From: a virus
DNA: 64,000 nt
Strand: one strand, 5' to 3'
Virus record (IMG/VR): IMGVR_UViG_3300042898_006156
Location: 32,001 to 96,000 of that record
Under the pieces are notes generated by a model. That model was not told the origin of the DNA. It did no database searches and saw only the letters and a list, made by a program, of their open reading frames with translations. Positions 11,891 through 59,187 of the stretch are shown piece after piece (positions within the stretch are counted from its first letter, which is position 1; the number at the start of each line of letters is the position of its first letter). Made by a program: the position numbers and the translations under genes.

Positions 11891-11920
11891 AAAAAACCAG
11901 ATCTATTGATCTGGTTTTTG
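11891..11920 (-). terminator. Intrinsic terminator
   Basis: aaaaaccagatc-tatt-gatctggttttt spanning the stop codon. Confidence 0.75.
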
Positions 11921-12094
11921 TGCTGTACGATATTCTTTCATATTAAAAGATTTCTTTTTTCTTTTCTTATTTTTATTGTAATTTGAATAAGCTATTGCCC
12001 ATGCTGTAGATTCTCTATCATCCTTGGATTTTTCAGGATAAAAATCAGAATCATCTAATAAAGTATCTACTAAATCATCTACTGGCTTTGGCAT
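11903..12094 (-). CDS. Small ChaB-like protein
   Basis: ESTAWAIAYSNYNK helix; basic tail; ends FNMKEYRTAQ. Confidence 0.5.
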   Translation of the reverse strand: MPKPVDDLVDTLLDDSDFYPEKSKDDRESTAWAIAYSNYNKNKKRKKKSFNMKEYRTAQKPDQ

Positions 12095-12095
12095 T

Positions 12096-12968
12096 TTAGG
12101 ATCGATTCGGGGCTTGTGTTGGTGGAGTAATTGGTGCTGCTGGTGCTGCTGGAGTTTTAGGTGTTCCAGTTATTGAGGTTAATGGCTTGGCTTCTACACC
12201 ATAAATTTGTGACGCTTGCTGCTTGCCTTCAGAATCTACATTTCCGAAATCACCAACTTGAAGACCTTTTTCTGTTTTTGTTTTACTCAATAACTCTTCT
12301 AGTTTTGTAGTATCTTGGTTGTATTTTTTCATTTCTTGAATTCTTGCTTCTAAACTATCTTTAAAACTATCAGTTTTCAAGTATGAGTTCCACTCTTTAA
12401 CTAAACCTGGTAAGTTTCTATCTTCTCTGTTTGGAAGAGCTTTTTCACCAGCAGCTGTCAAACCTTCAAGAGGAGAAGCTAATTCAATATTAACTCTATT
12501 GCCTTCACTCCCTACTCCAAGTCCCTGTATAGGTGTATCATTGACCATAGATGGGAAAGCTGTTGGATCATTTGGCTTAATTGGAATAGCATTTTGATTG
12601 AAATATGTGTTAAATTCTTTAATCAAGTCTGTGTAAGATTTGTAATCTATAAGATTATTTCTGTATTGTTTTTCAACTGCAGAAATCATATCTTCAAACT
12701 TCGGAGGGTTGGTTCTCTTCAATTGATCCTGAAAATATTTGATGATTGCATTTTGGCTGGTTGGCAGTACGTTGGTAACCGGAGCAGGGGTAGTAGAAGG
12801 TTTGACTGGTTGTTTAGTAGCAGGTTTGACTGGAGTTTTGACAGCTGGTTTGACTGGGGGTTTAGGAGCAGGTTTAGCTTGGGCAATTTTGAGCAAATCA
12901 TCAGCCTGTCTATGCATGCCATGTTGATCAAGTATTTGACTTATTTTAATAAATTCTTTTGTAAACAT
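12096..12968 (-). CDS. Leader-bearing Pro-rich hypothetical protein (putative head cargo)
   Basis: N-terminus MFTKEFIKISQILDQHGMHRQADDLLKIAQ, then PVKP repeats. Confidence 0.7.
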   Translation of the reverse strand: MFTKEFIKISQILDQHGMHRQADDLLKIAQAKPAPKPPVKPAVKTPVKPATKQPVKPSTTPAPVTNVLPTSQNAIIKYFQDQLKRTNPPKFEDMISAVEKQYRNNLIDYKSYTDLIKEFNTYFNQNAIPIKPNDPTAFPSMVNDTPIQGLGVGSEGNRVNIELASPLEGLTAAGEKALPNREDRNLPGLVKEWNSYLKTDSFKDSLEARIQEMKKYNQDTTKLEELLSKTKTEKGLQVGDFGNVDSEGKQQASQIYGVEAKPLTSITGTPKTPAAPAAPITPPTQAPNRS

Positions 12969-13002
12969 AATTTTTATTTTAACAACTTCTTAAAATTGCC
13001 CT

Positions 13003-14001
13003 TTATTTTAATCTTGTAAGCTTGTCACCAGTTGATTTTCCAATGTTAAATTGATCAATAACTTGATTGACTTTATTAGCAACTCCCGATATATCTGTAT
13101 TTTTAGGATTTTTATTTAGAAATTCAGTCTGAAATGTAGAAATTTTTGTTGGTGTGTTTTGTATTTTTAGCTTCTTTTCATCTTCTTTTAATTCTTTAAT
13201 CATTGAAGACTGGATTTCATTAATGATTTGGTCACCCAATGTATACCAATCAGTCACAAATACACTATTTCCAGCAGCAGTCCAGCCTGTTGGGTGCATA
13301 GCATTATTGTAAATAGGAGCTAATGTTTTGAATGTAGTATTGAATTTTTCTAATTTTTCGAAAAACTTTGAATCTGATTTCAATATATTCATAGCATATA
13401 TGACATCATTATATTCATTAGAATATCTTTGTGTGAAAGCTCCGGGTTTAGATTTATCTTCGGAAAGCGTTTTAAGCACAGGAATAATTTGTGTCAAGTA
13501 TGCATCAGCTTGTTCAGGGGTGACTTGTGCTTGTTGCGCCACTTGATTAGGGGATGAAACAGGTACTTGAGCAGAAGGAGTAACTGCAGTACCAGCACCA
13601 GGACTAGCCATAGGAGGTCCAGCTGGTTGTTGAGTACCACCTGCAGGAGCACTGGTTCCCTCATTTTGTTTTAATTTGTTCTTAATAAAGTCAACTGCTT
13701 TTGTGCTAACGTCTTTGTATTTATTTTTGACAGTTATTCTTGGATCTTTATCAATTGCATATATTTTATTTATCATACCCGCTGCTGAACGTGAATTGTA
13801 TACAGTTTTATCATAATTCATACCACTTTTTTTGATTGTTGCTAACTGATCATCGCCAAAATAAACTCTTACAATGTAGTAAACAAATTCTTGAGTTACG
13901 TCGCCAGGTTTTGCTAGCAATTTATTGATATAATCTGCATTAACATCATCTACCTTTTGCGCAAACTTTTTGTGGTTATAAATTGATATACTTTTTCTCA
14001 T
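13003..14001 (-). CDS. Leader-bearing hypothetical protein (putative head cargo)
   Basis: N-terminus MRKSISIYNHKKFAQ; Pro/Gln/Ala linker. Confidence 0.7.
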   Translation of the reverse strand: MRKSISIYNHKKFAQKVDDVNADYINKLLAKPGDVTQEFVYYIVRVYFGDDQLATIKKSGMNYDKTVYNSRSAAGMINKIYAIDKDPRITVKNKYKDVSTKAVDFIKNKLKQNEGTSAPAGGTQQPAGPPMASPGAGTAVTPSAQVPVSSPNQVAQQAQVTPEQADAYLTQIIPVLKTLSEDKSKPGAFTQRYSNEYNDVIYAMNILKSDSKFFEKLEKFNTTFKTLAPIYNNAMHPTGWTAAGNSVFVTDWYTLGDQIINEIQSSMIKELKEDEKKLKIQNTPTKISTFQTEFLNKNPKNTDISGVANKVNQVIDQFNIGKSTGDKLTRLK

Positions 14002-14010
14002 AGTTAAAAA

Positions 14011-14045
14011 ATCAGAACACTAAATTTCTTATTTAGTATTCTGAT
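14011..14045 (-). terminator. Hairpin/terminator just upstream of the 14001 start codon
   Basis: atcagaacactaaat / atttagtattctgat inverted repeat with a T-run on the minus strand. Confidence 0.6.
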
Positions 14046-14052
14046 ACAGTTT

Positions 14053-14742
14053 TTAATCTTCCTCGTATTCAAATCCAAATTGCTTCAGATAAACCCAACA
14101 AGGATCGTCATCAGTTGGAGGTGGTTCTTTTCCAGCGATAAGAGAAATCACTTCTTTTTTGATAAATTCTTCAAATCCATCCAAGTCAAGATCATATTGA
14201 ATATACTTTAACTTTCCACCAAGATTAGCAGATCCATCTTCAGAAATAGAAAATTTATTCGGTTCATATACAAATAAACCAATTTTGTCATTTATCTTTA
14301 CAGAATAATCTGATGCAGAATTTGGATTTGTCATAGCATAACTATAGCAAGATAATTGACGAACATATTTCTGTAAAGTTTTCTCTTGAATTTCACAAGT
14401 TTTGAAATCAATTACAGAATGAGATCCATCAGAAAATTTCAAAACACCATCGATTTTTCCACGTAAAATAACTTCAACATCAGGAAAATCAGGGTTTATG
14501 ATAGGTTTGCTCTTTACCCATTGATCTGCTCCAGTAATAACAGCATCAGGAAAAGATGGATCAAACTCTTTCATATTTTTATTTTCACAGCAAACTTTTG
14601 TTAACACATCAATAACTGTAAAAATACGAGGAATGATTACTGGTGGACGTTTGATACCTAGATTGTACTTCTGATAAAATCCCCAAGGACTATCATCTAG
14701 TAAGAAAGCTAGATCCGATGGGCTTAAAAAAATTGTTTTCAT
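14053..14742 (-). CDS. PD-(D/E)XK nuclease (Cas4/RecB-like exonuclease fold)
   Basis: LSPS...LRGKIDGV...VIDFKT...Y.RQL..Y. Confidence 0.8.
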   Translation of the reverse strand: MKTIFLSPSDLAFLLDDSPWGFYQKYNLGIKRPPVIIPRIFTVIDVLTKVCCENKNMKEFDPSFPDAVITGADQWVKSKPIINPDFPDVEVILRGKIDGVLKFSDGSHSVIDFKTCEIQEKTLQKYVRQLSCYSYAMTNPNSASDYSVKINDKIGLFVYEPNKFSISEDGSANLGGKLKYIQYDLDLDGFEEFIKKEVISLIAGKEPPPTDDDPCWVYLKQFGFEYEED

Positions 14743-14804
14743 TTCTTGCCTTTATTGTATAAAGATGTATGGATGATACCTTGTCAATTTTCAGATATCA
14801 AGGG

Positions 14805-14835
14805 TTGACAAAAGTAATTAATCAGGTATCATAAT
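14805..14835 (+). promoter_or_regulatory. Sigma70-type promoter in a divergent region
   Basis: TTGACA (14805) with TATCAT/CATAAT downstream. Confidence 0.6.
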
Positions 14836-14866
14836 ACAGATCAAGGGATCAAAAGGATATATATCA

Positions 14867-15196
14867 ATGGACGAGTCTACAGACGTTACAGCAGTTGTTA
14901 GTGAGGAGCAGCCAGCAATCTCTCACGATGAGTATCTTGAGTTAGTTTCTATGCGCCAGTCATTACTCGAGCTCAAGGCACAAAAGTCTGATGTTCTTGA
15001 ATTTGTGAACGTTGCTCAACAGTATGCAGCACAACTTCAGCAAGCACAGCAACAATTGACAGCTATTAATGAAGCACTCACCGAGAACACCTCGGCGCTT
15101 CAAGAGCGAATGAAGGAAATTGTTGAGCCTCTTGGTGTTTCTGGTGAGTTTACAATCACTGATACAGAGCCACACTACATCGTAGCTAATTCGTAA
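14867..15196 (+). CDS. Coiled-coil hypothetical protein
   Basis: Gln/Leu heptads; has its own promoter and terminator. Confidence 0.75.
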   Translation: MDESTDVTAVVSEEQPAISHDEYLELVSMRQSLLELKAQKSDVLEFVNVAQQYAAQLQQAQQQLTAINEALTENTSALQERMKEIVEPLGVSGEFTITDTEPHYIVANS

Positions 15197-15210
15197 TCTT
15201 TCAAAGCAAT

Positions 15211-15240
15211 AAAAAGCAGGCTGCAAAGCCTGCTTTTTTT
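15211..15240. terminator. Bidirectional terminator (GCAA tetraloop)
   Basis: aaaaagcaggct-gcaa-agcctgcttttt. Confidence 0.85.
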
Positions 15241-15520
15241 ATGTCTTTATAATTGGAAAGAATGATTGACTTGTAATCAATCCCACTCTACTAGAAGATA
15301 AATCTATAGGTATATCCCATAACCTAGTAATAAAAACTCTTTCTCTTTTAATTTGCAAATAATCTGAAACACATTCAACAAAGAAATCATTCAATTTCCA
15401 CAATTCGGCAGCTTCTTCAAGATAAGAAATCATATTTAAAGTTTGTTTTAAATATGATATATAAGGATGATTTTCAAAGTCTTCATTGTCTCTGAAATCC
15501 ACAATTATAATATTACTCAT
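15239..15520 (-). CDS. Hypothetical protein
   Basis: ORF directly downstream of the RusA-like gene. Confidence 0.6.
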   Translation of the reverse strand: MSNIIIVDFRDNEDFENHPYISYLKQTLNMISYLEEAAELWKLNDFFVECVSDYLQIKRERVFITRLWDIPIDLSSSRVGLITSQSFFPIIKT

Positions 15521-15523
15521 ACA

Positions 15524-16066
15524 CTATTCCTTGATTGTTTTATTCTTCTTCTTTGCTTCCTTTATTGCTTCCTTTGCTAATTGTTCATTTCTGAATTGTT
15601 CTTTTGGGTGTCTGTAGCGGAAAATTTCTACTTCAATTCTTGGATTTTCCTTATCATAGTGAATCATATGTGAATCTCTATCTAACCAATGAATCCACAT
15701 ATCGTTAGCAATGATTCCGTGTTTTTGAATAATATCTCCGTTAGCTTGCTGATATCCACATTCATCACCCACAATCCAAGAGTCTAGATAAACTTTGAGT
15801 TTGATACCTATTCCAAAATCGATTGGACTTAATTTAAATCTTTGCCAGAAATATTCACAATATTCTTTACAGTGTAATTCATATCTCTCGTAAAGAGCAG
15901 AAGGTAAAATTTTGGTGAATTTACCCCTTCTAACTACTCTTTGGGAAGTTTTCTTTGTCGATGGTCTACCTGGAATTGTAAATGATAAAATTAATGTATT
16001 ATCTGGTAGGTCTTCATAATTTTTTTCGTCTTCACAAACTAGATGAAATTTTAAAAAATCTTGCAT
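15524..16066 (-). CDS. rusA: RusA-like Holliday junction resolvase
   Basis: FTIPGRPSTKK...GDECG...GDII...GIIANDM...DKENPRIEVEI. Confidence 0.65.
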   Translation of the reverse strand: MQDFLKFHLVCEDEKNYEDLPDNTLILSFTIPGRPSTKKTSQRVVRRGKFTKILPSALYERYELHCKEYCEYFWQRFKLSPIDFGIGIKLKVYLDSWIVGDECGYQQANGDIIQKHGIIANDMWIHWLDRDSHMIHYDKENPRIEVEIFRYRHPKEQFRNEQLAKEAIKEAKKKNKTIKE

Positions 16067-16085
16067 ACCAAATTTGTACAGGTTG

Positions 16086-17891: not shown

Positions 17892-20426
17892 TTATAATTT
17901 TTCTGGATCTGGAACAAATCCAAAAATACCCTCGTCAATTCCCATCAATAATTTTCTCAACTCTTTCAAATCAGCAGGCATATTTCCGCTTTCTATAGCA
18001 TTTTTGAGTCTTTCAAATTGTTGTATTTTTTCGAAATGTTCTTTTTCAGATAAAATTTCATCAACTCTTGATTTGAAAAGTTTCAATGGAGAATTTTCTA
18101 ATGTAGCCAAATCTCTTTGATTAGCTTCTATCATTTTTTGAGCAGAAATCTTTTGTTCTGTTGATGAGTTAGGACTTAAAATTATTCTTGAAGCATTGTC
18201 TATATTGTTTTTGATGCTTTCAACATAGTCATGGTGTTCTTTTATGGTTTTTCTGTCAAACCCAGCTTTGCCAACAAATTCTTTTTTTGCTTGCTTTACT
18301 GCATTTTGTAATTTGTAATGTAAAATTGCAGAATCAATTGCACGAATACATTTTCTTTTATCATCATTTACAATCATCTTGCGAAATTCTGGGTTATCAA
18401 GATTTGCTTGCAATTCAAAATCTACACTATTTTCAATCATCTTTTTAGCTTTACAAAAATTGTTTGTATTGCTACAGCCTGGATAAGAATAGATAATATT
18501 TTTTTCGTCTAATTTCTGGGCAATTGAATTGAATGGAATTTTTAAGTCTTCTTTTTCAAAACTCAAAGCTTCAGTACCCACAATATGAGCAAGTGTAGAG
18601 TAAGTTCTTTTTTTCCATAATGTTTTAAGTTTATATATGTTTCCTATTCTTGTTTTGACACCAGGTACAAGAGGCTCATATTCTTTCATCACTTCACCAG
18701 TTTGAGTACTAATTTTTGGTGGAGGAGTAAACACATTGCCATCAGGATCTAACCAAGGTTTACCCTGGTCTATAATTGTTTTAATATCATCACTATCATA
18801 GCCAAAATATTCTCCAACAAACATTACTTTTGACTTTATAACTGGCTGAAAATTAATTGGATCGATATATTCTAAAACATCTACATATATCATAAAATCT
18901 ATATCAAAATTATTGGCATTAGTTGGACAGTCAGTAGGAATAGGAACTAAAACTTGGTAAGGAATAGCATCAATACCAAATTGCTCTCTTAAAATTTGAA
19001 TAATTTTTGCTTCTTGTTTGGACCTAGTTGTAAGTCCTAAAGCATCATAATTTGGATCAGGAAAATGATTAGAAGATTCTAAAGAATCACTCAACTCTGT
19101 CAAACCTATATCTCTCAAATCACTCCTAAATTGAGTAAGATTACCCTTACAAATACTTACAAAATAAAATCTAATAGCTAAACCTGCTGGGTCTAATGGT
19201 AAAGAATCAGAATGGACTATTTTTGCTAATCCCGGACCATCATAACCTTCTTGAATAAATTCGTAAAGTCTATCTTTTGCGTAGTTGTCTCTTAATGTCA
19301 TTTGAGAGCGTTTAATGAAGTTAACTCTTTTGTCTACTTCAAATGGAATATTTCTGACATCTTGCCCAGGAAAATTTTCTTCAAGGTATTTCATTTCTGA
19401 TGGTGATAAAAAGGGTAAACCTGTACTTGGATCAAATTCTGGTCTGAAAATTCTATAATATGTATTTCTCAATTCTGTACTTCTAAAACCAGTTTGTTTT
19501 ATGACTTCTGGTTTTTCAACTTTTATCTCTTCTATTAATCCAGCGTTCTTAATCATTTCATATAAGTTAAAATTCACTGGATGGTCTATCAATTTCTTCC
19601 ATCTAGCAATTTCTTCTTCATTCATTTTTCCAGATAATGCAAGAATTTTTGTCCAACCACTTTCACCTTTGACATTGGTTTTTTTAACTAGCTTCTGCAC
19701 TTCTTCGTTTATTGCTTCTACGTTTTGAATAACTGTTGGATCAGTAAACTTTGATGGCAGTGGGCTTTTAGATGTCTTTCTTCTGTCTGGGAATAAAATC
19801 TTAAGTGCTTCAACAGGTGTGTTAGTAACCATCACTAATAAATCATTTTCATCAAAATTAGGTATCTGTAAGGCACGACTCTTGATTTCTTTAAATTCAT
19901 CAATAATTTCATTGATTTCTTTTTGAACTTCTTTTGAAATCCAGGTTTTTATAGAAGCGATTTGATCTGGATCTTGATAATCTGGTAGTCTTCCTAAAAT
20001 TTCAGTGGCTTCAGGAGTATTTCTTTTTGATGTTCTACTTAACTCAATCAATTCTGGAATAAATACTTGATTGACACGCTCTAATAATTTCTTGATGATA
20101 ATCTCTGAAACTTGATTTTGATCTAAACCTGTTTGCTCTAATTGTTCTTTGATAGTACAAGCTGATTGAATTAAAGTAGTGATGTTACTTCTGTATTTTT
20201 CAAGGAACTCAAATTGTTGTGGTACACCTGATACTTTTGTTTCTGCTAATAATTTGTATGCAGCCTCAATGCCAATTTCTCCAGCTGCTAATTTTTCACC
20301 AATTTCTCTATCAAGGTATTCAGAAATATAGGCAGCTTTTTCTTCAACTGTTCTTCCTGGAATGTCTTCAGGAGATACTTTAGTGGATAAATCTGCAGCT
20401 AATACGTGTTTGTTTAAATTGAACAT
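17892..20426 (-). CDS. Large protein with a central Vsr/PD-(D/E)XK-like endonuclease motif
   Basis: RSKQEAKIIQIL...FDIDF...VGEYFG...YKLK..WKK.TY; N-terminus MFNLNKHVLAA. Confidence 0.6.
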   Translation of the reverse strand: MFNLNKHVLAADLSTKVSPEDIPGRTVEEKAAYISEYLDREIGEKLAAGEIGIEAAYKLLAETKVSGVPQQFEFLEKYRSNITTLIQSACTIKEQLEQTGLDQNQVSEIIIKKLLERVNQVFIPELIELSRTSKRNTPEATEILGRLPDYQDPDQIASIKTWISKEVQKEINEIIDEFKEIKSRALQIPNFDENDLLVMVTNTPVEALKILFPDRRKTSKSPLPSKFTDPTVIQNVEAINEEVQKLVKKTNVKGESGWTKILALSGKMNEEEIARWKKLIDHPVNFNLYEMIKNAGLIEEIKVEKPEVIKQTGFRSTELRNTYYRIFRPEFDPSTGLPFLSPSEMKYLEENFPGQDVRNIPFEVDKRVNFIKRSQMTLRDNYAKDRLYEFIQEGYDGPGLAKIVHSDSLPLDPAGLAIRFYFVSICKGNLTQFRSDLRDIGLTELSDSLESSNHFPDPNYDALGLTTRSKQEAKIIQILREQFGIDAIPYQVLVPIPTDCPTNANNFDIDFMIYVDVLEYIDPINFQPVIKSKVMFVGEYFGYDSDDIKTIIDQGKPWLDPDGNVFTPPPKISTQTGEVMKEYEPLVPGVKTRIGNIYKLKTLWKKRTYSTLAHIVGTEALSFEKEDLKIPFNSIAQKLDEKNIIYSYPGCSNTNNFCKAKKMIENSVDFELQANLDNPEFRKMIVNDDKRKCIRAIDSAILHYKLQNAVKQAKKEFVGKAGFDRKTIKEHHDYVESIKNNIDNASRIILSPNSSTEQKISAQKMIEANQRDLATLENSPLKLFKSRVDEILSEKEHFEKIQQFERLKNAIESGNMPADLKELRKLLMGIDEGIFGFVPDPEKL

Positions 20427-20536
20427 AAATAAAATCCAAATTAGAGATATGATTACTTTTCTTTTTTAGGAGTTTTCAGCCCTTTATATCTAGAATATTA
20501 AAGCTAGTTTAACGTTAGTCCTTGGAGGGTTTAACA

Positions 20537-31523: not shown

Positions 31524-32292
31524 AGTTATAGCTCAAGTTTTAAAACACAACGAAGTGGATGTTTATATTCTTTGGGCTATCTCTAAATTGGTTGATGAGA
31601 ATAATTCAGGTATTGTTCCTATCGAAGAAATCATTAACATAGCTAAAATTGTATTTCAGTATTCCTCTACTTTTGTTTATGACAAAATCAAAAAAGGAAC
31701 AGATCTTTATTGGACAGCTCCTCACGGTAAATTTGGCAAAAAGAGTGTCTGTTTATTTTCTATCAACAAAATTATTAATCGCTTAAAGCCCGAAATCACA
31801 AGATCAAAACCTGTAGCTGTCCCATTATCGGCTCTTCAAAGTCAAAGCTCTAAATATGTCAAAGAACTTTTGATTTGTATTTTTGCTGCTAGATATGAAG
31901 ATGAAAGACCAGTAGCTATAGAAACTATTTCTATCTACACTGGGCAAAGTGAATCTACAGTGAGAAATGCCATAAAAAGCTGCAAATATATATCTTCAAG
32001 GCAAAATCACGAAGTAATAGATAAAACCCTTAAGAAGACAAAATTATCCCTTACAAATGAACAAGTGCAAGAGTACAAGAAACTCAAACTCATCCAGAAA
32101 AATTATTCTTACATTATCTGTAAACAAATTTCTAATTCTTATAGACTATTGGAGTTTGACAGATTGCCTTTGCGCACTCGTCCAAAAGCATTAAAGATGA
32201 TTGATAAAAATCTAATTCTTAATTTAGAACCAAGGCATTACCACGAAAAAAATGGTAAACTTTATTCGAGTCGCAATAAAGCAATTCTCTAA
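31495..32292 (+). CDS. Basic hypothetical protein with an HTH-like motif
   Basis: IETISIYTGQSESTVRNAI. Confidence 0.6.
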   Translation: MSKTIILNPEVIAQVLKHNEVDVYILWAISKLVDENNSGIVPIEEIINIAKIVFQYSSTFVYDKIKKGTDLYWTAPHGKFGKKSVCLFSINKIINRLKPEITRSKPVAVPLSALQSQSSKYVKELLICIFAARYEDERPVAIETISIYTGQSESTVRNAIKSCKYISSRQNHEVIDKTLKKTKLSLTNEQVQEYKKLKLIQKNYSYIICKQISNSYRLLEFDRLPLRTRPKALKMIDKNLILNLEPRHYHEKNGKLYSSRNKAIL

Positions 32293-38711: not shown

Positions 38712-38740
38712 AAAAAACCCCTCGAAAGAGGGGTTTTTTT
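38712..38740. terminator. Bidirectional terminator (GAAA tetraloop)
   Basis: aaaaaacccctc-gaaa-gaggggtttttt. Confidence 0.9.
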
Positions 38741-39389
38741 ACATCATTGGTAATGGACTTGCTTTTCTGAAATCTTTGTATATTCTGTTAACTTGTTTTA
38801 CAAAAGCTTCGTTTCTTGCAGAATTTTCAAAAAAATCTTGATAATCTAAAGCTAATTTGTCAGCTTTAAACTTCTTCTTATTTTTGAGCAATTCTTTGAT
38901 TTGACCAATAATTCTTCTGTATACATAACCTTGCTCTCTTTCATCAAGAATAGGCATTTTTGGACCAGAGGGTTTATTAATAGTAATATCAGTGTTAGAA
39001 TTACCAGAAGGTGTATCTTCCACATTTTCATTTTTTTCAGGTCTTAAAGTAGGATTATCTGGATCTATTACAGTTGTAAATTTACCCAATCTATTTCTTT
39101 GATCAGTGGCTTTTTCTATAGCTTTATCAATATACTCTCTTTCTTCTTCAGAATATCGGCCTGGATCATTTTGATACCACTTGACTAAATTTTCAAAATC
39201 TTCATTTGGATTTTGAGCCAAAAGAAACAACTCATCCATAAATTTTTCAGGAGTTTTTACTTCATTGGATACAATTTGGGATACTTTTAAAAATTGTTTA
39301 TGAAGCACTTCTGCAGCTTTGAAATCTCCATAAGTTTCTAATAATTCAATATCTTTGTTGATTTTTGATAACTTTATAAATTTATTCAT
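38739..39389 (-). CDS. Leader-bearing hypothetical protein (putative head cargo)
   Basis: MNKFIKLSKINKDIELLETYGDFKAAEVLHKQFLKVSQ. Confidence 0.75.
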   Translation of the reverse strand: MNKFIKLSKINKDIELLETYGDFKAAEVLHKQFLKVSQIVSNEVKTPEKFMDELFLLAQNPNEDFENLVKWYQNDPGRYSEEEREYIDKAIEKATDQRNRLGKFTTVIDPDNPTLRPEKNENVEDTPSGNSNTDITINKPSGPKMPILDEREQGYVYRRIIGQIKELLKNKKKFKADKLALDYQDFFENSARNEAFVKQVNRIYKDFRKASPLPMM

Positions 39390-39391: not shown

Positions 39392-40048
39392 TTAACTCTT
39401 TGCTACTGATCCACCTTTATTTTTATCAATCATTCCTCTCAATGTATTGCACTGTGCTGCAAATGGTCCACAATCCATACCATATTCTCGCTGTAATCTT
39501 TGCAATTCGTTTTCTAAATATTGCAGTTCTTGATCTTTTTTATTTTTATCACCATACTGAGTTGGAGGTGGAGTAGGAGGAGGTACATTTTGTCCACCTG
39601 GATTTGTATTACTTCCTTCGTAAGGAGGCTGTACTTGTCCACCAGGTGCAGGCGCAGGTGAAGGTAATGGTGCTATCTGCATATTTCCAGGGCTCGGTTT
39701 AGGAGCTGGAGCAGGGCTTGGAGCTGGGCTTACTCCTGGATTTGGTGGGCCTATTGTTTGAACAGGAGTTGTTCTTGGTTGAGCTACAGGCATTTGTGCA
39801 GGTGCAACAACTGGTTTGGCTAGAGTTGTTGGAGCGATCATTGGTCTTGCCATCATTTGAGGCATCATCATTGGCATCATTTGTGGCATCATCATTTGAG
39901 GCATCATTGTGGTCATCATTTGAGGCATTGCATACTGTGCCTCTTTAATAAACTTCTGATGTAATATTTCTGCTGCTTTGATTTTGCCAGCATTCTCTAA
40001 TAATTCGATATCTCTATTTAATTGAGCTAATTTTTGAAATTTGTTCAT
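39392..40048 (-). CDS. Leader-bearing Met/Pro-rich low-complexity protein (putative head cargo)
   Basis: MNKFQKLAQLNRDIELLENAGKIKAAEILHQKFIKEAQ, then MPQMM repeats. Confidence 0.75.
   Translation of the reverse strand: MNKFQKLAQLNRDIELLENAGKIKAAEILHQKFIKEAQYAMPQMMTTMMPQMMMPQMMPMMMPQMMARPMIAPTTLAKPVVAPAQMPVAQPRTTPVQTIGPPNPGVSPAPSPAPAPKPSPGNMQIAPLPSPAPAPGGQVQPPYEGSNTNPGGQNVPPPTPPPTQYGDKNKKDQELQYLENELQRLQREYGMDCGPFAAQCNTLRGMIDKNKGGSVAKS
39851..39933 (-). repeat. Imperfect tandem repeat encoding (M)MPQM
   Basis: catcatttgaggcat units repeated about 4 times. Confidence 0.75.
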
Positions 40049-48021: not shown

Positions 48022-48052
48022 AAAAAGAGGGGAGAAATCCCCTCTTTTTTTT
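48021..48052. terminator. Bidirectional terminator (GAAA tetraloop)
   Basis: aaaaaagagggga-gaaa-tcccctctttttt. Confidence 0.9.
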
Positions 48053-48413
48053 ATTTTGGTTTATAGTACATAGTTCTGGAAAATGTATCTGTCAAATCAT
48101 AATCTTTTCTTTTTCCAGCATTATCTACAAATTCATTTCGCTCATAAAATCTTTGAAGTGCACCCTTTTTGCCTTTCTCAGGTTCAGGGTTTAAAACAAT
48201 TGGCTTGCTTACTCTTTGGCTATAATCTTTAAGAGCAGTAATTATTTCTGTTCCTATACCCATACCTCTCATCTCTTTTGGTATGAATATTTTATCTAAT
48301 TTGATTTTGTTTTCAAATTCATTGATTCTTAAAACAATTTCTGGATATTTATTCATAAAAAAATTGATTAATTCTTGAATATCATTTTGATTTTGAGCAA
48401 GTCGATACCACAT
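48051..48413 (-). CDS. GNAT-family acetyltransferase with a MWYRLAQ leader
   Basis: IFIPKEMRGMGIGTEII acetyl-CoA motif, L.RFYERNEF; start at 48413. Confidence 0.75.
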   Translation of the reverse strand: MWYRLAQNQNDIQELINFFMNKYPEIVLRINEFENKIKLDKIFIPKEMRGMGIGTEIITALKDYSQRVSKPIVLNPEPEKGKKGALQRFYERNEFVDNAGKRKDYDLTDTFSRTMYYKPK

Positions 48414-48414: not shown

Positions 48415-50349
48415 TTATTTCCTAACAACTTGCGCTTGTTTGGATTTGTAATAATTTAGTAATTCTTGTTTTTGGGCTTCCGACCATTCATTGAGATTAT
48501 AAATTCTCATAAAAATAGGTCCTTTAATTTTTATATTGCTGGCCATCAATTTATCTATTGCCTTTATAGCTGATTGAAAAGTAATTTTTAATTTTGTATT
48601 ATTTTGAATTAACTTTTCATATTTTTCTTTCAAGCTCATTATTTTAATATATAAATCATTTGCAATTTTCTGTTTGACATTTTCTAATGAGTTCTTAGTG
48701 AAATTATCTTGCTCTAAAGTTTGATTTATTTTTTGCTTGACAATATTTGGATCTAGCGTATAAGCAGTTGAGGCGATTTGATAAGGCGAATGCATACCTT
48801 GATATGTTGGTTTGCTTGTTTGTGAAATTTGGAAGTCATATAAGAAAAAATCTTCAGGATTATTAAAAGTCAACGGAGGAAAAATTGTCTTAATTAATTG
48901 CTGATATATTCTGTCAATATTTGCCTGATCATCAATATACTTAGAATTTTTTGTTGATATGGCATTAATAATTTTTTGCCCAATTTCATATTCATATTGA
49001 TTGGCTAGTACCATTTCATCCAATAAAGAAACTTGTGGTATTTTTTGCAAATCAGATTTATTTGGAAAACCTGCAGACATGAAATATCTTACAGCTTCGG
49101 GCATTAATTTATTTTTAAAATATCTAAATTCTTTATTGTCAGGAGTGAAATGAAATGGCATACCATCATATTTCATCCATTCCATAACTTTTTGACCAAT
49201 TGATGATTCGTAAATATCCAAATGTTGGTCAATAAAATCTTTAATATTTTTTGGTAAGTAAAAATTGTTTATAAGTTGATTAATTGGACTTATTTTTTCT
49301 CTATCTTTGAAAGTAAAATTTTTATAATTGAAAGAAGATGGATCTTTGGTTTTATCCAATGATAAAGATAACCTGTAAAGTGCTAACTCTAATTCATCTT
49401 GAGAAACAGGTTCTATACTAAAAAAATATTCATTTTTATTCAAGAATCCTACAATATCATTTATTTTTTGTTGATCATTGATTAAATTTTTTGCATATTC
49501 GTGTTTGTCACCAGAAAATTTATCTATTGCATTTTGAAATGCCCCAACTAAAGTACTCAATCTTCTTGATTTAAGGTTCGTAGTTGTATCAGATTTAGAT
49601 AATTGACCTTTTTGCTTCAAAGAATCAAATTTTATATCAGAACCAAAATCTTTAAAGCTGCTAGGATTTTTTTTGACTTCTTGTCTTACAATATCTAACA
49701 ACTGATTTTGTCTGATATTTTGCTCAGAAGTTTCTGGGAATCTATACTCAAACCCCATCAATGATAATATTTCGTAACCTTCAGCAAATGCCTCGAACTT
49801 ATTCGTTTTTGCGTAGCCAGTTGGAGCCATTCTTTGATATTTCTTCATGTCTTGATTACTACGATCTAGTCGTGTTGATTTATCAATAGCGTGTCCAATC
49901 TCATGATTTAATGAAGACATAATATAATCGAAATTAATAAATATTTTATCACTTGTGGGTTCATACAAACCTGTCCAAGGCAAGTTTTTATTAATACCTA
50001 TGTTAGTTAAAACTGTGCCTCCGCCTTCTTTGCCCACATTTATATCAAGACCCTTTGAAGCAATAGTGTTTAAGGCTCCTTTAGGGTATAATGCAAAAAC
50101 ATTCATTACAGTAGAAAAAATTTCATTGATTTGAGATTGAACTAAATTTTTAAATGTTTCCAAAGTTAACTTAGATTTTGATTCTGTTTGTAGTTTTGAA
50201 TCACCACCAGGTAAACTTTGATATATATTAACAGTTGGATACTCAGGCAATCCATTAGAAGTCAAAGTACTTTTCAAAGAAATTTTTAAAAAATTTCCTT
50301 CTTGGGTAATATTATAGTTAAATTTATTCTGAGCTGTTTTGTACCACAT
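48415..50349 (-). CDS. Zincin-like metallopeptidase domain protein with a MWYKTAQ leader
   Basis: GLY.P....I.I, LNHEIGHAID, YAKTNKFEAFAE. Confidence 0.7.
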   Translation of the reverse strand: MWYKTAQNKFNYNITQEGNFLKISLKSTLTSNGLPEYPTVNIYQSLPGGDSKLQTESKSKLTLETFKNLVQSQINEIFSTVMNVFALYPKGALNTIASKGLDINVGKEGGGTVLTNIGINKNLPWTGLYEPTSDKIFINFDYIMSSLNHEIGHAIDKSTRLDRSNQDMKKYQRMAPTGYAKTNKFEAFAEGYEILSLMGFEYRFPETSEQNIRQNQLLDIVRQEVKKNPSSFKDFGSDIKFDSLKQKGQLSKSDTTTNLKSRRLSTLVGAFQNAIDKFSGDKHEYAKNLINDQQKINDIVGFLNKNEYFFSIEPVSQDELELALYRLSLSLDKTKDPSSFNYKNFTFKDREKISPINQLINNFYLPKNIKDFIDQHLDIYESSIGQKVMEWMKYDGMPFHFTPDNKEFRYFKNKLMPEAVRYFMSAGFPNKSDLQKIPQVSLLDEMVLANQYEYEIGQKIINAISTKNSKYIDDQANIDRIYQQLIKTIFPPLTFNNPEDFFLYDFQISQTSKPTYQGMHSPYQIASTAYTLDPNIVKQKINQTLEQDNFTKNSLENVKQKIANDLYIKIMSLKEKYEKLIQNNTKLKITFQSAIKAIDKLMASNIKIKGPIFMRIYNLNEWSEAQKQELLNYYKSKQAQVVRK

Positions 50350-53467: not shown

Positions 53468-53507
53468 AAAGAAGTTTTTTTAATGAATTGTGCCTTCGGG
53501 AGTTTTG

Positions 53508-54197
53508 ATGGCAACCGAAGATTTCAGAATAGTCAGAATAGTAAATAGAGCTAAAGCAGGAAACCAAGCAGCATTTAAAAAGTTGCTTAAGATGGTAGAA
53601 CCAGATCTCAAGAAGATTGCACCACACTTTTTCATAGTCGGCGGAGACAGAGAAGATGTAATGCAAGAATTGAGATTAGGTGTATTTAAAGCGGTAAATT
53701 CCTACGATTGCACTAAAGACACAACATTTAAGAACTTTTGCGTAAATTTAGTTTGTAAAAGACATCTTGCAACAGCTATAGCGTCAGCGAAAAGAATGAA
53801 GAATTCAGCTTTGAATGATTCTATTTCGCTAGACGCTCCTTTTATTTTAAATGATGATGGTAATTTCCATTCATTAGGAGACTATATTCCTGATAAGAAA
53901 AATCCTTATGATGAATCTCCAGAAGTAAATTTAGTTGAAGATATTATTGTTAGACAAGAATTAGAATTAAATTCAGAAATGTTGATGGATAAACTCACTT
54001 CATTAGAAGCAGACATTTTTGTTGAATATGGTCACAATTCATCATACAAAGAAATTTCTCACACCTTGAATGTTCCAGCTAAATGTGTTGACAATGCACT
54101 CACTAGAATTAGAAAAAAAGCATCTGAGGTTTATGTTCAATTCAAAGATGATGAGAACAATGATGCTACTCATAAGAAGCCAAAAGGTAGATCATGA
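53508..54197 (+). CDS. sigH: SigH-like RNA polymerase sigma factor
   Basis: FFIVGGDREDVMQE...G.FKAV..YD, F..F...KR...TAI..A.R.K...LN..ISLD, SYKEIS..L....K.VDNALTRIRKK. Confidence 0.85.
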   Translation: MATEDFRIVRIVNRAKAGNQAAFKKLLKMVEPDLKKIAPHFFIVGGDREDVMQELRLGVFKAVNSYDCTKDTTFKNFCVNLVCKRHLATAIASAKRMKNSALNDSISLDAPFILNDDGNFHSLGDYIPDKKNPYDESPEVNLVEDIIVRQELELNSEMLMDKLTSLEADIFVEYGHNSSYKEISHTLNVPAKCVDNALTRIRKKASEVYVQFKDDENNDATHKKPKGRS

Positions 54198-54826
54198 TAA
54201 ACTTTCTTCGCACAGCATCTGTTTTGGATATCTTAGGATGCTTCAAACTTGCAGATAAATTTACCAAAGTAGCAATTGATTCTTCTGATTTGGATTTTGA
54301 TCAGGTATATAAAAATCCTCAGACATTTTCTGATTTTGCCTTAACCAGAGCTAGAAAAGAAGGCAAAGATCCTATTGAAGTTTTAGGTGATGATAACTTC
54401 ACTTTTGATCGTTCAAAAGATCCTTTAGAACAAATTTCTGACAAACATAAAGGCACAAGAAAACATTTTGAGCTTTATCCTCAAATTTTATTATTTCCTG
54501 AAAGTGGTGTTTGGAAATTTTTCTTTATGGATCCTTTGTCATTTAAGGCATTATCAAGAGGGTCTGATAAAGAAGGTAAACTAATTACAGATCAATTGTC
54601 TATTCCTGGTTTAGAAGAATTATATAGTGATGAAGAAGATGCAGAAGAAATTCATCATGAGGTTGTTTTCACCACTAATTTACCATTAGAAGATTACAGC
54701 AAAGACGAAGCTATAAGTAGAATAAGACAAAAATTCCCTGATGCCCACATTGATTATCAAATGAATGGTGTGGATGACAGGGAATTTTTTGATGAAGAAA
54801 AAGATATAGATTTATCTTCTTCTTAA
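54194..54826 (+). CDS. Leader-bearing hypothetical protein
   Basis: MINFLRTASVLDILGCFKLADKFTKVA resembles the leaders of the minus-strand family. Confidence 0.65.
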   Translation: MINFLRTASVLDILGCFKLADKFTKVAIDSSDLDFDQVYKNPQTFSDFALTRARKEGKDPIEVLGDDNFTFDRSKDPLEQISDKHKGTRKHFELYPQILLFPESGVWKFFFMDPLSFKALSRGSDKEGKLITDQLSIPGLEELYSDEEDAEEIHHEVVFTTNLPLEDYSKDEAISRIRQKFPDAHIDYQMNGVDDREFFDEEKDIDLSSS

Positions 54827-56437
54827 TAATCCTGATAAAATGCCTTGAACTTGCTCATCATCTAAATTAACTTTAGGCAAACTAAATCTTGATTTTTTCT
54901 TAAAGAAGTCTGCAGAATGATTTTCTTTAGATTTTCTTCCAGTGTTTCCATTTAAATTAAATTCAACAATATAATTTTTCTTTTTATCTGGGAAAATAAA
55001 TTCAACAAACTGATTTACATCGTCATATTCATTTGAAGTAGGTTCGTGTATTCTCAATGACACATTTTCACCCAAATGTTTTCGCATAGTGTCAACAACC
55101 ATATCATCTAATTCAGGGTGTATTCCAGGTATTCTGCTTCTTTTAGAATTGAATTCTTCTGGCTTATCCAAAGCAGTATCTGGTTTATTTTCTAAATAAT
55201 ATTTATTGTCTTCTCTTTTTTCAGGAATATTTGGCTTGATACGAGAAGAACTTGGTTGAACTTCCACTGGCTCTGTTTCAACATTGATTTGTGGAGTATT
55301 AAATTGCCTATTATTAAATGTAGGTGTAGTTAAGGACATAGCCTGATCAGATACATTATTTTCTGTATTTTTTTGATCTATTTTTTCTTCAGCAGGACCA
55401 ATTTTACTCTTTGGTTTACTTACTGCCTGAGGTAATGGTACTTTAATATTTTCTTCAGATTTAATTTTTGTAGGCGATTGTTTTGATGGAGGCGTATCAG
55501 AATGTTGATTTACTCTTTCTTTTTTATCTTCTATCTGTTTGGAGGCTTGAGCTTTTGATTGTGAATCAACAAGCTTTCCATTATCAAAAACTTTTATTGA
55601 TTTGAATTTTTTTGGACTAGTAAATGGTTCTGAAATTTTTTCACCAGATTTTGCTTTAAGTTTGGTAGTGTTTCTATCATTATTTTCGTCTACTGTCTCA
55701 ATAATAATTTGATGGAATTTATCATCACTCGGAGTTTGATATTGAATAAAATATCTATACACATCATTGACTCTAGTGACATTGATAATTCTTCTATCTT
55801 CAACAATTTCAGAAACGGAAGGTATTTGCTGGATATTAAATAATGTAAAATTGACTGGAGGTAAAGAAGATAAAATTGAAGATATTACTCCAAAAATTAC
55901 AGTGATGTATTTTGCAATCTCTTCTCTGTTTTCAATGAGATATTTAAGTAAATAATATAATTTTGCAGATCCTGCTAAAACAAAAGCAACTGGCAAGCCT
56001 TTTCTTATAGCTACTTTTAATGTTTCATTTAACTTATTAATTCTTTTGTCTGATACTGATAAAGTTTCAAGCATTTCGACAATTTCTTCACCTTTTTCAG
56101 ATCTTTCTTGAACATCTATGAATTGATCATTTCCTGTAGATTGTAAAAATTGTTCTGCAAGTAAACTGTTGTTTGCTCCATATACATTAAAAATTTCTTC
56201 AAAATCATCAGATTCTTCAAATTGTGGTTGAGATCTAAAATATTCAATTGCAAAATTTTTATATTCTTCTTCTAAACCTTTTTCAGCAATAATATCTAAA
56301 GCTTCTTTATCACTTGGATTTTGTGTAGGTTGAGCAACTTTTATAAAATGCGAATGTAATATTGAAGCTTCTTTGAAATTATTATTTTCAAAAGTTGTGA
56401 TAATATCATGAAAAAGTACTAGATCAAATGTTTTCAT
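54812..56437 (-). CDS. Leader-bearing hypothetical protein with central hydrophobic segments
   Basis: MKTFD...NFKEASILHSHFIKVAQ. Confidence 0.7.
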   Translation of the reverse strand: MKTFDLVLFHDIITTFENNNFKEASILHSHFIKVAQPTQNPSDKEALDIIAEKGLEEEYKNFAIEYFRSQPQFEESDDFEEIFNVYGANNSLLAEQFLQSTGNDQFIDVQERSEKGEEIVEMLETLSVSDKRINKLNETLKVAIRKGLPVAFVLAGSAKLYYLLKYLIENREEIAKYITVIFGVISSILSSLPPVNFTLFNIQQIPSVSEIVEDRRIINVTRVNDVYRYFIQYQTPSDDKFHQIIIETVDENNDRNTTKLKAKSGEKISEPFTSPKKFKSIKVFDNGKLVDSQSKAQASKQIEDKKERVNQHSDTPPSKQSPTKIKSEENIKVPLPQAVSKPKSKIGPAEEKIDQKNTENNVSDQAMSLTTPTFNNRQFNTPQINVETEPVEVQPSSSRIKPNIPEKREDNKYYLENKPDTALDKPEEFNSKRSRIPGIHPELDDMVVDTMRKHLGENVSLRIHEPTSNEYDDVNQFVEFIFPDKKKNYIVEFNLNGNTGRKSKENHSADFFKKKSRFSLPKVNLDDEQVQGILSGLLRRR

Positions 56438-56469
56438 ATCATTGTTTACTTATTTATAAAACTTAATAC

Positions 56470-59187
56470 CTATCCTAAACTTTTTCTAAAATTATAAACT
56501 TTAGCAGTTTTATCTTCATCTCTCTCTATAGAAAGATCAACTTGTGTTTCATCTTGTTCAGCATCATCAAATCCTGGAAAATTGCCCGGTGGTCTTCCTG
56601 GTCCTTTAAATCTAGGAATAATGACATCAATTTTTCTACCACTAGGAATTGGTTCTGTCTGCTGTATTTGGAATCTTGAGTGTCCCTTGATATCTTGAGC
56701 TGTTGGAGGATCTTGTGTCTTTTTAGCTTGTTCTCTTAATTGCTCATTTTCTTTTCTTCTATCTTCGCCTTCTGGATTTACAATGTCTGTAGTAAGCAAT
56801 CCGTTAGCCACAGCTTCTGCAATCTTTGAATAATAATCAGACATATATCCTTCAACTACAGCTTCAGATACATCTTTAACATCAAAGATTAACATTTTTC
56901 CAGATTCTATTAATTGGGTTTCTACTTCTTTTAATTCTTTTTCAAGATCTGTTCTTTCACGAGAATAAATAGGAGTAGACTGTATTTGTTGTAATAATTG
57001 ATTTTTCCTACCAATCAAGCCTCTTCTGTAATCTCTTCTGCCTTGTATTTGAAATGTTTCGTGAAAAATCATCTCAAGTCTATTTCTTTGACGTTGTAAT
57101 TTTTTATTAATTGCTTCAAGTGGGTCTGTTAATTTTATGGTTTGACCAGAATCAGATGTGAAAGTACCAAATCTTCCAGCTTCCATGTCTGCAAGTAATC
57201 TTGTAGCATTGGTTCCACCTGACATTAAGTGAACCATCTCATCCTGAATATCTAAAATCCATTGTTCTTTTGCAGCATTATAGATTTTTCTATCAGACAT
57301 CAAGTTACCAATATGAGCATCAAATATTTTTGAAAGATAAGGAATGTCTCCGTGGATTCTTGCATAAAGCTCTGATGGATTAGAGATATATGCTTCTTCT
57401 GGTGTCAATTCTGGATTTAATGCAATAGAATCTTGCATCGTCAAATCACCAGACTGTAAATATTGCAATGCGTGAGCAACTTCGTGTCTTCTGGTAGCTT
57501 CAACATAATTTTCAGCATCCATACCAATGTTTTCTGCTAAAGCTTTATGATAAGAAAGTTGATTCCATATGTCAGTTTTAATTAAGATAGCTGGTACTGG
57601 GCCTCTATCTTTAGTTGGAAATCTTGGGACAAATAATCCACCCCATTTTTCATCAATCAAATCTACAGGACCAATTTTCATTTTTGGAGCATTATTTTCT
57701 TGCATAAAGTTTTGTAAGCTCCAAGTGCTAAATTCTATGATTACCATCTGATCAGCATATGTTTTGATGTCTTTTATGCTTGTTCCAGCAAAGGGTGCTT
57801 CTTGCATCATACGATCTTCATAGGATTGATATATTTTTCCAAAAATTTCGTCAGATTTATTTTTTTGTCTAATTCCGCTTTCTGACATACCTTCTGGAAC
57901 TACTTCATTTTTAGGTCCTTTTCCATATGCATAGTTGAAAGAACTATCTGATGCTTTAGTAATTTTAATTACACCCTGTTTTGCAGCTTTTTCCAATAAA
58001 GCTAAACCGTCAGATTGAATTTTTGCTTTGGCTGCAGTTCCACGAGCAATGATTTTATTTTTAATCTCATCACCCAAACTGCTCAAAAGATTTATATTAA
58101 ATTTATCAAAATCTTCTGGGTTTTTTTCCAAATACCTTATGATGACTTCAGGCTTTGCAATTCCCTTTATTATATACATAGGTGTGCAATCATCACCTAG
58201 CGAATCAATATAAGCAATAAATTTTTTACTTCTTTTAAGTTTTCCAATTAGCAAAGGATTGTTGTCTAGTTCATATGAATTAATTACGTTATATAATCTT
58301 TTGACTAAAGGTGTTACGAATTCATCATACTGGGTATATTGTTCTAAATTAGTAAGTGTGTCAACTAAAGACTCTGTAGGTAAGCCCATAACCATGCTAA
58401 CAACATCTTTTTGTTCTATATCAGATTGATTTAATATCTGAATAATCATATTTAAAATTTGAGGTGGATCAATTCCTGAAAAAAGAAAACTCTTTAATAG
58501 GGGCAGATAATTCTTTATTTCTCCACTCCAAATTGTAGTAATTGCAGCATCGTAACTCTCAAACTTTTCCAATTCAGGTTTCTGTTGTTTTAATTGTTCT
58601 ATCAATAAATTTCTTTGTTCAGAATCGGGTATTCCCAGTAATGCTTTGTCATCACCACGCATCATAAATAAAGAGAGAGAATCACTTATTTCAGTGCCTT
58701 TTCTAACTAATAAATTAAGTGTCGTAAATCCAATACCTAAAGTAGAATTGACATATGCTTTTGCTTTTTCAGCATCAGGAATTTCGTCTCCTAATTTATT
58801 TCCTTTATGTCCTTGAGATTTTGAAAAACTATTTAATTTTCCCAAAAAATCTAGAACTTTCATCATATCTGTATTGGCAGAACTACCTTGTTTTTTCATT
58901 TCATTATCAATAAATTTTGATAATCCGCTAGTAAAATTGATTATATCTGCCATAGCATTAACATCTGTTGTAGCTTTTTCAAAATATTTATCAATAATAG
59001 AATCATTATTTTTGCCTTTTTCTATGTCAAATAACAACTTAAGCATAGCAGTCATAGTAGGCATATTATTTGGGCTGTAAAATGAAAAATCTTTGAATGT
59101 TCTAGAAAAAGAGCCACTCCAAACAACTTCTTTAGTTGAAAGGACATCCCAGGCAGTTGCTGATTCGATAATTTTTGAGTACCACAT
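56470..59187 (-). CDS. Large protein with a zincin-like metallopeptidase motif (putative head cargo)
   Basis: WGGLF, RRHEVAHALQY, YISNPSELYAR; N-terminus MWYSKIIESA. Confidence 0.7.
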   Translation of the reverse strand: MWYSKIIESATAWDVLSTKEVVWSGSFSRTFKDFSFYSPNNMPTMTAMLKLLFDIEKGKNNDSIIDKYFEKATTDVNAMADIINFTSGLSKFIDNEMKKQGSSANTDMMKVLDFLGKLNSFSKSQGHKGNKLGDEIPDAEKAKAYVNSTLGIGFTTLNLLVRKGTEISDSLSLFMMRGDDKALLGIPDSEQRNLLIEQLKQQKPELEKFESYDAAITTIWSGEIKNYLPLLKSFLFSGIDPPQILNMIIQILNQSDIEQKDVVSMVMGLPTESLVDTLTNLEQYTQYDEFVTPLVKRLYNVINSYELDNNPLLIGKLKRSKKFIAYIDSLGDDCTPMYIIKGIAKPEVIIRYLEKNPEDFDKFNINLLSSLGDEIKNKIIARGTAAKAKIQSDGLALLEKAAKQGVIKITKASDSSFNYAYGKGPKNEVVPEGMSESGIRQKNKSDEIFGKIYQSYEDRMMQEAPFAGTSIKDIKTYADQMVIIEFSTWSLQNFMQENNAPKMKIGPVDLIDEKWGGLFVPRFPTKDRGPVPAILIKTDIWNQLSYHKALAENIGMDAENYVEATRRHEVAHALQYLQSGDLTMQDSIALNPELTPEEAYISNPSELYARIHGDIPYLSKIFDAHIGNLMSDRKIYNAAKEQWILDIQDEMVHLMSGGTNATRLLADMEAGRFGTFTSDSGQTIKLTDPLEAINKKLQRQRNRLEMIFHETFQIQGRRDYRRGLIGRKNQLLQQIQSTPIYSRERTDLEKELKEVETQLIESGKMLIFDVKDVSEAVVEGYMSDYYSKIAEAVANGLLTTDIVNPEGEDRRKENEQLREQAKKTQDPPTAQDIKGHSRFQIQQTEPIPSGRKIDVIIPRFKGPGRPPGNFPGFDDAEQDETQVDLSIERDEDKTAKVYNFRKSLG

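Follow-up and report, generated by a model that had tools for sequence, protein, structure and literature searches.

Two portable leader types on unrelated proteins of an uncultured jumbo phage: candidate tags for loading the capsid

In phage P22, a terminal helix-turn-helix of the scaffolding protein, ~35 residues long, suffices to bring a fused protein into the procapsid. The internal proteins of T4 are a diverse set that shares only a capsid targeting sequence (CTS) (PMC3012670). In the phiKZ-like phage SPN3US, head processing by the gp245 protease uses a short three-position motif, with multiple cuts in the portal and internal proteins and some N-terminal propeptides of 20-24 amino acids (aa) (PMC10052503). 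Zincin-like metallopeptidase and RimI-like GNAT domains are hallmark parts of the polyvalent proteins and typical components of proteins believed to be carried in the capsid and delivered along with the DNA (Iyer, Burroughs, Anand, de Souza and Aravind, 2017; PMC5512222). Here we analyze a 64,000-nucleotide stretch of viral DNA (positions 32,001 to 96,000 of IMG/VR record IMGVR_UViG_3300042898_006156), hereafter the window, in which a dispersed set of otherwise unrelated proteins begins with one of two leaders. These leaders, or tags, are real and portable, can stand in for one another, evolve under selection at the protein level and carry at their ends a motif enriched in head proteins.

One tag is a seven-residue peptide, M-W-Y-[KR]-x-A-[QS]; the other is a helix-turn-helix of ~38 residues ending in [KR]-hydrophobic-[AS]-x. 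We propose, with the scales about level, that both are interchangeable address tags that recruit a large and fast-changing set of accessory proteins into the assembling head, where the prohead protease cuts them and from which the cargo is injected. The tag would probably bind the procapsid scaffold/protease core or the portal; the phage prohead protease would then cut the junction between the Ala and the last residue of [KR]-x-A-[QS], and would also trim the protease polyprotein, the portal and a scaffold-like protein at this motif; the cargo, once freed, would stay inside the head until it entered the host along with the DNA. In this scheme, procapsid binding and the later cleavage, packaging and injection are steps that we infer. 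A wider proposal is tentative and falls somewhat short of an even chance: that ~350-kb freshwater jumbo phages forming a clade related to phage G share a two-tier tag code, which sends ~10% of their proteins into the capsid and is removed by the protease.

The window (bases 32001-96000) belongs to one 113,559-bp viral contig whose ends are open and whose GC content is 33%. The contig is a fragment of an uncultured freshwater jumbo phage, since its close IMG/VR relatives reach 358 kb and 316 kb (terminase identity 85% and 77%, respectively). The 358-kb relative, G001, served as the reference for comparing bodies and leaders and for counting motifs and promoters; gene totals are 135 in the contig and 401 in G001. 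The major capsid protein of G001 (284 aa, phrog_2522) has no N-terminal extension, and its closest cultured relative is Bacillus phage G, with 47.5% identity.

The best-supported mechanism, argued by analogy, would be a capsid-loading tag with a protease-cut junction, as in the T4 CTS and the SPN3US propeptides, from which the system differs in that its motif is another, its cargo is much more numerous and turns over faster, and one version of the tag is a folded hairpin. As with the CTS of T4 IPI, IPII, IPIII and Alt, which gp21 removes, a short N-terminal peptide is the sole common part of diverse, fast-evolving proteins, and it ends in a motif found in other head proteins; T4 cargo includes anti-host proteins, and a tag of ~7-10 residues seems to be enough. 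In T4 both packaging and cleavage are proven; here they are predicted. The T4 motif ends in Glu, whereas here it is [KR]-x-A-[QS]; about 40 genes per ~350-kb genome are tagged, against a handful in T4; and there are two tag classes, one of them a folded 38-aa hairpin that also occurs at C-termini. The tags share no sequence similarity with the CTS, and the protease matches phrog_18299 only, not a T4-type Glu-specific gp21; by its sequence the tag system is not a member of the T4 system. SPN3US similarly has many head proteins, a dedicated prohead protease and a short motif, features recognized here in predicted proteins; it belongs to another lineage (the capsid protein here being nearest to that of phage G), its motif is different, most of its head proteins are uncleaved and they have no common leader. 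The P22 coat-binding domain resembles the long tag in the predicted architecture only: it resides on one scaffolding protein and is not cleaved, whereas dozens of candidate cargo proteins are tagged here. A relation to the C-terminal domain of the P22 scaffolding protein (gp8) was rejected (hhalign probability 0.3%).

The long leader is defined by a profile hidden Markov model (HMM), built from the contig's own copies and run over the contig proteins. It finds the module at 12 N-termini, with independent E-values from 2e-18 to 1.4e-9; five of these proteins lie in the window. About 24 module proteins are found in G001. Two ~1000-aa paralogues outside the window carry the module at their extreme C-termini (E 4e-4 and 8e-4). 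For the leader of the protein encoded at 39392-40048, AlphaFold2 predicts two helices (residues 3-19 and 23-40) joined by a turn, with a predicted local distance difference test score (pLDDT) of 88. Among 1.84 billion representative proteins, the profile matches 757 clusters at E <= 0.001; these are mostly metagenomic proteins of 40-500 aa with a single N-terminal copy and diverse bodies, and some have two or three copies or one copy at each end. Across 194 distinct N-termini, almost all positions are conserved through [KR]-[LIV]-[AS], and similarity stops after the next residue, giving way to flexible Pro/Gln/acidic linkers. The residue following [KR]-x-Ala in the wider module family is Q in ~36%, M in 24% and E in 15%, with A common too. 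Between six paralogous leaders, 151 codon changes are synonymous and 217 non-synonymous; because synonymous change is so abundant, the leader is selected as a peptide, not as DNA, and an RNA- or DNA-level signal was rejected on the same grounds.

By pattern, the module looks like a solo TPR-like hairpin. It shares with the TPR_10/TPR_12 units of the kinesin-light-chain type the helix-turn-helix length (about 34 residues, as in the AlphaFold2 model) and the pattern ...L-x-x-x-G-x-Y-x-E-A..., and the top summed profile scores fall on eukaryotic TPR_10/TPR_12 repeat proteins, with kinesin light chain as the best PDB match. Per-repeat scores against kinesin light chain are an insignificant 2-5 bits and the module proteins match none of the Pfam TPR models (no Pfam match at E < 0.01); the module is therefore called TPR-like by pattern only, not a TPR family member. 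Unlike TPR proteins, it is mostly present in single copy, with no tandem array. Foldseek with the hairpin model returned generic hairpins and nothing specific, Pfam and PHROG scans of the leader proteins returned nearly nothing, and no relevant paper turned up in a literature search with the motif strings. A tblastn search of 50,697 GenBank phages with a canonical module protein gave zero matches, and neither the module profile nor the W-Y-[KR]-x-A-Q pattern has a match in Bacillus phage G. The module family is thus not in Pfam, the GenBank phages or the literature searched.

The short leader has the consensus M-W-Y-[KR]-x-A-[QS]. M-W-Y starts occur in 7 of the 135 contig genes, where 0.08 are expected (Poisson p 3e-12), and in 14 of the 401 G001 genes, where 0.25 are expected (p 4e-20). 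Residues 1-9 are predicted to be disordered (pLDDT 32). The short tag is built like the end of the long module, with two hydrophobic or aromatic residues ahead of K/R, x, A and Q. A stretch of G001 at 225735-229228 (L095:5735-9228) holds five consecutive minus-strand genes, each starting with M-W-Y-[KR]-x-[AS]; no Pfam family was found among the four genes scanned, and the locus would be a tandem array of tagged candidate cargo genes.

The tagged and candidate genes of the window are as follows.

12096-12968, minus strand: long leader, 290 aa; leader in the first ~30 aa (12879-12968; HMM independent E 4.8e-12), then a Pro/Lys-rich linker and a body without known family
38739-39389, minus strand: long leader, 216 aa; leader in the first 38 aa (39276-39389; independent E 2.2e-17)
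39392-40048, minus strand: long leader, 218 aa; leader at 39935-40048 (independent E 2.4e-16), Met/Pro/Gln-rich low-complexity body
54812-56437, minus strand: long leader, 541 aa; leader in the first 36 aa (independent E 4.7e-15)
54194-54826, plus strand: short form of the long module, 210 aa; leader in the first ~27 aa (independent E 1.4e-9)
48415-50349, minus strand: M-W-Y-K-T-A-Q start, 644 aa; probable zincin-like metallopeptidase body, HExxH at residue 149
48051-48413, minus strand: M-W-Y-R-L-A-Q start, 120 aa; GNAT-type acetyltransferase (Pfam Acetyltransf_1, Acetyltransf_7; phrog_10691)
56470-59187, minus strand: M-W-Y-S-K-I-I-E-S-A start, 905 aa; HExxH at residue 568
13003-14001, minus strand: weak candidate member, 332 aa; K-K-F-A-Q at residues 11-15
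17892-20426, minus strand: weak candidate member, 844 aa; loose N-terminal match

An earlier note, made on the window's letters, had proposed these ten genes as one family with unrelated bodies, nearly all on the minus strand. Every N-terminus that it quoted is present and the likeness is far beyond chance, yet two of the ten genes, those starting at 14001 and 20426, are weak members, and neither matches the module profile. The bodies are indeed unrelated, since with the leaders removed no BLASTP pair reaches E < 1e-3 except the two C-terminal-module paralogues, and the strand bias is borne out (a leader in 7/18 minus-strand versus 1/57 plus-strand window genes; Fisher p 1e-4). Its statement that similarity ends after A-Q is correct as to the place, but the Q itself is a minority choice in the wider family, and its description of an N-terminal leader, apt for the 12 N-terminal modules, is too narrow for a family with C-terminal and internal copies.

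The long-leader genes illustrate how bodies change behind a constant leader. For several leader genes, the match to G001 is confined to the 38-aa leader (63-82% identity), and many bodies have no G001 ortholog. The product of 38739-39389 matches its G001 counterpart only in the leader (63% identity), its body being unmatched, whereas that of 39392-40048 has a leader 82% identical and a body about 38% identical; the latter body contains repeated M-M-P-Q-M-M, and bodies of a similar kind are kept in relatives such as P0089 and P0009. In G001, the orthologues of these two neighbors are joined in one open frame (88921-90456; L088:8921-10456) in which the internal second module retains its initial Met, as also seen in database proteins P0001, P0005 and P0009; such joined leader genes are natural fusions or lost stop codons. 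The gene at 12096-12968 has AAAGG 36 nucleotides (nt) before its ATG, matches no Pfam or PHROG family and its body lacks an ortholog in G001; a 63-aa open reading frame immediately after it (11903-12094, minus strand) encodes a C-terminus ...E-Y-R-T-A-Q-K-P-D-Q, with the junction motif near its end. Neither a Pfam or PHROG family match nor a G001 ortholog was found for 54812-56437. By contrast, 54194-54826, whose start overlaps the end of an upstream sigma-factor gene, has a G001 ortholog (75% identity) that retains the leader. As to the two weak candidates, 13003-14001 has no module-profile match, no G001 ortholog and no Pfam or PHROG family match; 17892-20426 has no N-terminal profile match and an ortholog with 56% identity, and is preceded by a strict AAAGG-N18-AGAA site (20459-20485, minus strand).

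Tag exchange is seen in the 48415-50349 family. Its homologues, 31-72% identical, all start with M-W-Y-R-x-A-Q and diverge in the residues after that, while homologue P0327, with a homologous HExxH body (BLASTP E 1e-42), has a long module in place of the short tag. The two leader types thus appear interchangeable, because homologous zincin-like bodies carry either tag. H149, E150, H153 and the Glu of E-A-F-A-E are conserved in at least 90% of the family. Its Atlas neighbors are zincin families (score 0.92, a lead only), and the best Foldseek rows are zincin peptidases and ArdC, all at E > 0.05 and with a poor AlphaFold2 model (pLDDT 60); there is no Pfam or PDB sequence match. The adjacent 48051-48413 gene, whose true start is the ATG at 48413 and not the TTG at 48428, passes Acetyltransf_1 marginally (20.8 bits against a cut-off of 20.7) and matches Acetyltransf_7 at E 1.8e-5; three further GNAT models stay below their cut-offs, and PHROG acetyltransferase matches include phrog_10691 (E 1.6e-12), covering positions 2686-2794 of a 3925-position profile. 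The product of 56470-59187 has no PDB or Pfam match; its G001 ortholog is 66% identical, and M-W-Y-S-[KR]-I-I-E-S-A is retained in 23 related viral contigs.

G001 has its own set of leader proteins, its module proteins being joined by 14 M-W-Y proteins; in the phage of the window, about one protein in ten is tagged. Identifiable bodies comprise the probable zincin-like peptidase, the marginal GNAT, a PcfJ-like protein and the second HExxH protein, together with a NUDIX hydrolase in G001; candidate cargo also includes small acidic proteins. The zincin-like, GNAT, PcfJ-like and NUDIX kinds all have counterparts among proteins that accompany phage DNA into the cell. These domain types overlap with those of polyvalent proteins, and the window GNAT matches a very long PHROG profile. 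Here, by contrast, the domains are solo, each with its own tag, and are not fused in a giant polypeptide: the tagged proteins are single-domain or have no recognized content, in place of the two to fifteen fused effector domains that define the polyvalent class.

The link to the head comes from the junction motif. Within the first 45 residues, [KR]-x-[AS]-Q occurs 20 times in the contig against 7.8 expected; the G001 count is 32, and shuffling gives 9.3 +/- 2.9. The motif is far commoner at N-termini than in the shuffled controls by which the earlier note had wished its claim to be judged. Internal sites in head-module proteins, counted from position 45 onward, are likewise in excess, about threefold: [KR]-x-A-[QS] is found 22 times in G001 versus 6.4 +/- 2.5 in shuffles and 17 times in the contig versus 5.0 +/- 2.2. 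This pattern ranks first of 24 orderings of its elements in both genomes (in G001 the runner-up has 15 and most have 5-8), whereas the rest of the G001 proteome is at the background level (64 versus 55). A phage G control for the enrichment was not significant. At any position, the protease protein has 6-7 sites, the portal 5 and the scaffold-like protein 4, with [KR]-T-A-S used eight times; the terminase and the capsid protein have zero. Most head-protein sites are kept between the contig and G001 even where their flanks differ. Site density per 1000 aa is 0.9 in cargo bodies, which are not enriched, versus 3.7 in head proteins. The expectation that head proteins carry the motif thus holds for the protease polyprotein, the portal and the scaffold-like protein and fails for the major capsid protein.

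A prohead protease had been expected and is encoded: it is the N-terminal domain (phrog_18299, E 1e-21) of a 1378-aa protein just past the window (L003:12806-16942, genome 108806-112942). [KR]-x-A-[QS] occurs in this protein at residues 32, 306, 553, 775, 970 and 1147, at spacings of 175-275 aa, delimiting a 32-aa leader, a protease domain closed by the second site and five more pieces without detected mutual similarity; several sites are followed by Gly/Pro/Ala-rich stretches. From this layout the protein looks like a self-processing polyprotein. It starts with M-Y-K-V-A-K, resembling the short tag. The portal gene (L003:10317-12680) encodes an unusual fusion, a C-terminal DUF559 / MTES_1575 restriction-endonuclease-like domain at residues ~705-773. 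The head module contains two tagged genes, one of which immediately precedes the portal gene.

Leader genes also share a promoter-like upstream motif with head genes. In G001, AAAGG-N17-19-[ATG][AG]AA precedes 6/17 leader genes, 4/14 structural genes and 7/145 others; in the contig, AAAGG lies 25-75 nt upstream of 10/21 leader genes versus 8/114 others. Two sigma-70-family proteins are encoded on the plus strand of the window, at 53490-54197 (overlapping the start of the leader gene 54194-54826) and 62357-62923, and either could read an AAAGG-N18-AGAA promoter-like motif.

The encoded protease, the head motif, the shared promoter-like element and the kinds of cargo speak for the capsid-targeting, protease-cut tag that the earlier note had envisaged; the siteless capsid protein, the lack of strict N-terminality and the variable residue at P1', where a conserved Q had been foreseen, do not fit it. 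Several observations count against such a tag. No cultured phage, among the GenBank phages or in phage G, was found to carry the module. The motif enrichment is statistical and relies on a four-residue pattern in helical proteins. The major capsid protein has neither a site nor a propeptide, which gives no indication that the shell itself matures by proteolysis. Copies of the module are also found at C-termini and internally, and in two cases the motif is placed badly for its removal: in database protein P0197, with a C-terminal copy, it lies at the far end, so that a cut would leave the module attached, and the N-terminal module at genome 7665-8123 has it in helix 1 only. A rule that the motif is always placed for module detachment, true of the contig's two C-terminal copies, was rejected on these two exceptions. 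The residue after Ala varies in the module family while head sites use Q or S, the promoter-like motif precedes only about a third of leader genes, few bodies can be identified and the zincin assignment is weak. Uncleaved docking and a non-virion partner are retained as alternatives, given that the capsid protein is siteless, that the residue after Ala varies and that some copies are C-terminal or internal.

The first of these, which we judge unlikely yet the stronger of the two, is that the tags are unremoved docking elements on the virion or on assembly intermediates, anchoring proteins to the capsid exterior, neck, tail or an internal protein body; pairing of the hairpins into four-helix bundles could bring many different proteins together. 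A docking domain accommodates the location at either end and the multi-copy proteins better than a strictly N-terminal propeptide does, and it would explain why all 38 residues, not the junction alone, are highly conserved and why the closest folds are generic dimerising hairpins; the promoter-like motif and the positional link to head genes fit it equally. Yet the junction matches a motif specifically enriched in the protease, portal and scaffold-like proteins, a disordered 7-residue peptide can substitute for the hairpin, which is hard to square with a structural plug, and the enzyme-like bodies are unlike fibers or decoration proteins.

Also doubtful, and ranked just behind, is a role unrelated to the virion, with the tags recruiting late-expressed proteins to a chaperone, a host protease, the transcription apparatus or a membrane site, and the likeness to the head-protein motif being coincidental or due to a shared chaperone or protease. 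The resemblance to a single TPR-type repeat, with TPR_10/TPR_12 and kinesin light chain topping the searches, suits such a role since TPR units are general protein-binding elements; most tagged genes sit among replication genes, outside the head module, and about two thirds of leader genes lack the promoter-like motif. The TPR similarity is, however, not significant per repeat and unsupported by any Pfam TPR model, motif enrichment is restricted to head proteins, and the genomic context points back to the head: two tagged genes are within the head module, one directly before the portal gene, and the tagged genes of the 358-kb relative cluster beside its head module. The phage encodes sigma factors and shows no sign of a phage nucleus; an import signal for such a nucleus was set aside on account of those sigma factors and of the phage's likeness to phage G.

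That the shared N-termini are a by-product of chance, composition, translation-initiation or RNA signals, or cassette recombination scars is very improbable: the genes are AT-rich with similar 5' contexts (...AATT ATG) and a conserved 5' end would favor the cassette-like replacement of bodies behind an unchanging leader, but the abundant synonymous change inside conserved leaders and the M-W-Y start probabilities (1e-12 to 1e-20) already largely refute it, and conservation extends over 757 clusters and to C-terminal copies, which cannot act as initiation signals.

Should the tags indeed direct cargo into the head for injection, the injected effector repertoire of uncultured huge phages would become readable from sequence. 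Huge phages have hundreds of genes with no assigned function, many of which a packaging tag would sort, without culturing, as injected first-strike proteins; candidate anti-defence factors would be among them. The system would be a second, independent case of the T4 capsid-targeting principle, with another protease motif and a much larger cargo set, and its folded hairpin version would offer a defined procapsid binding partner to seek. The tag would also be usable for loading foreign proteins into such capsids.

The remaining genes of the contig provide context. On its plus strand, the window encodes a replication and recombination module comprising a DnaB-like helicase, a DnaE-type polymerase, RecA, RecJ, ribonucleotide reductase and AAA ATPases; downstream, beyond the window, lie the large terminase, the portal and the 1378-aa protein, with its match to head maturation proteases in the N-terminal part. 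One module protein was used to scan prokaryote genomes for a hint of the host, and no relative was found. A 321-aa protein outside the window (L001:9180-10145) has a type IV pilin-like N-terminus, of a kind abundant in Planctomycetota and Verrucomicrobiota, and is a possible hint to the host group. A 783-aa protein (1245-3596, minus strand) contains a glycosyl hydrolase family 5 (cellulase) domain (E 1.7e-14) and may act on the host envelope or break down polysaccharides.

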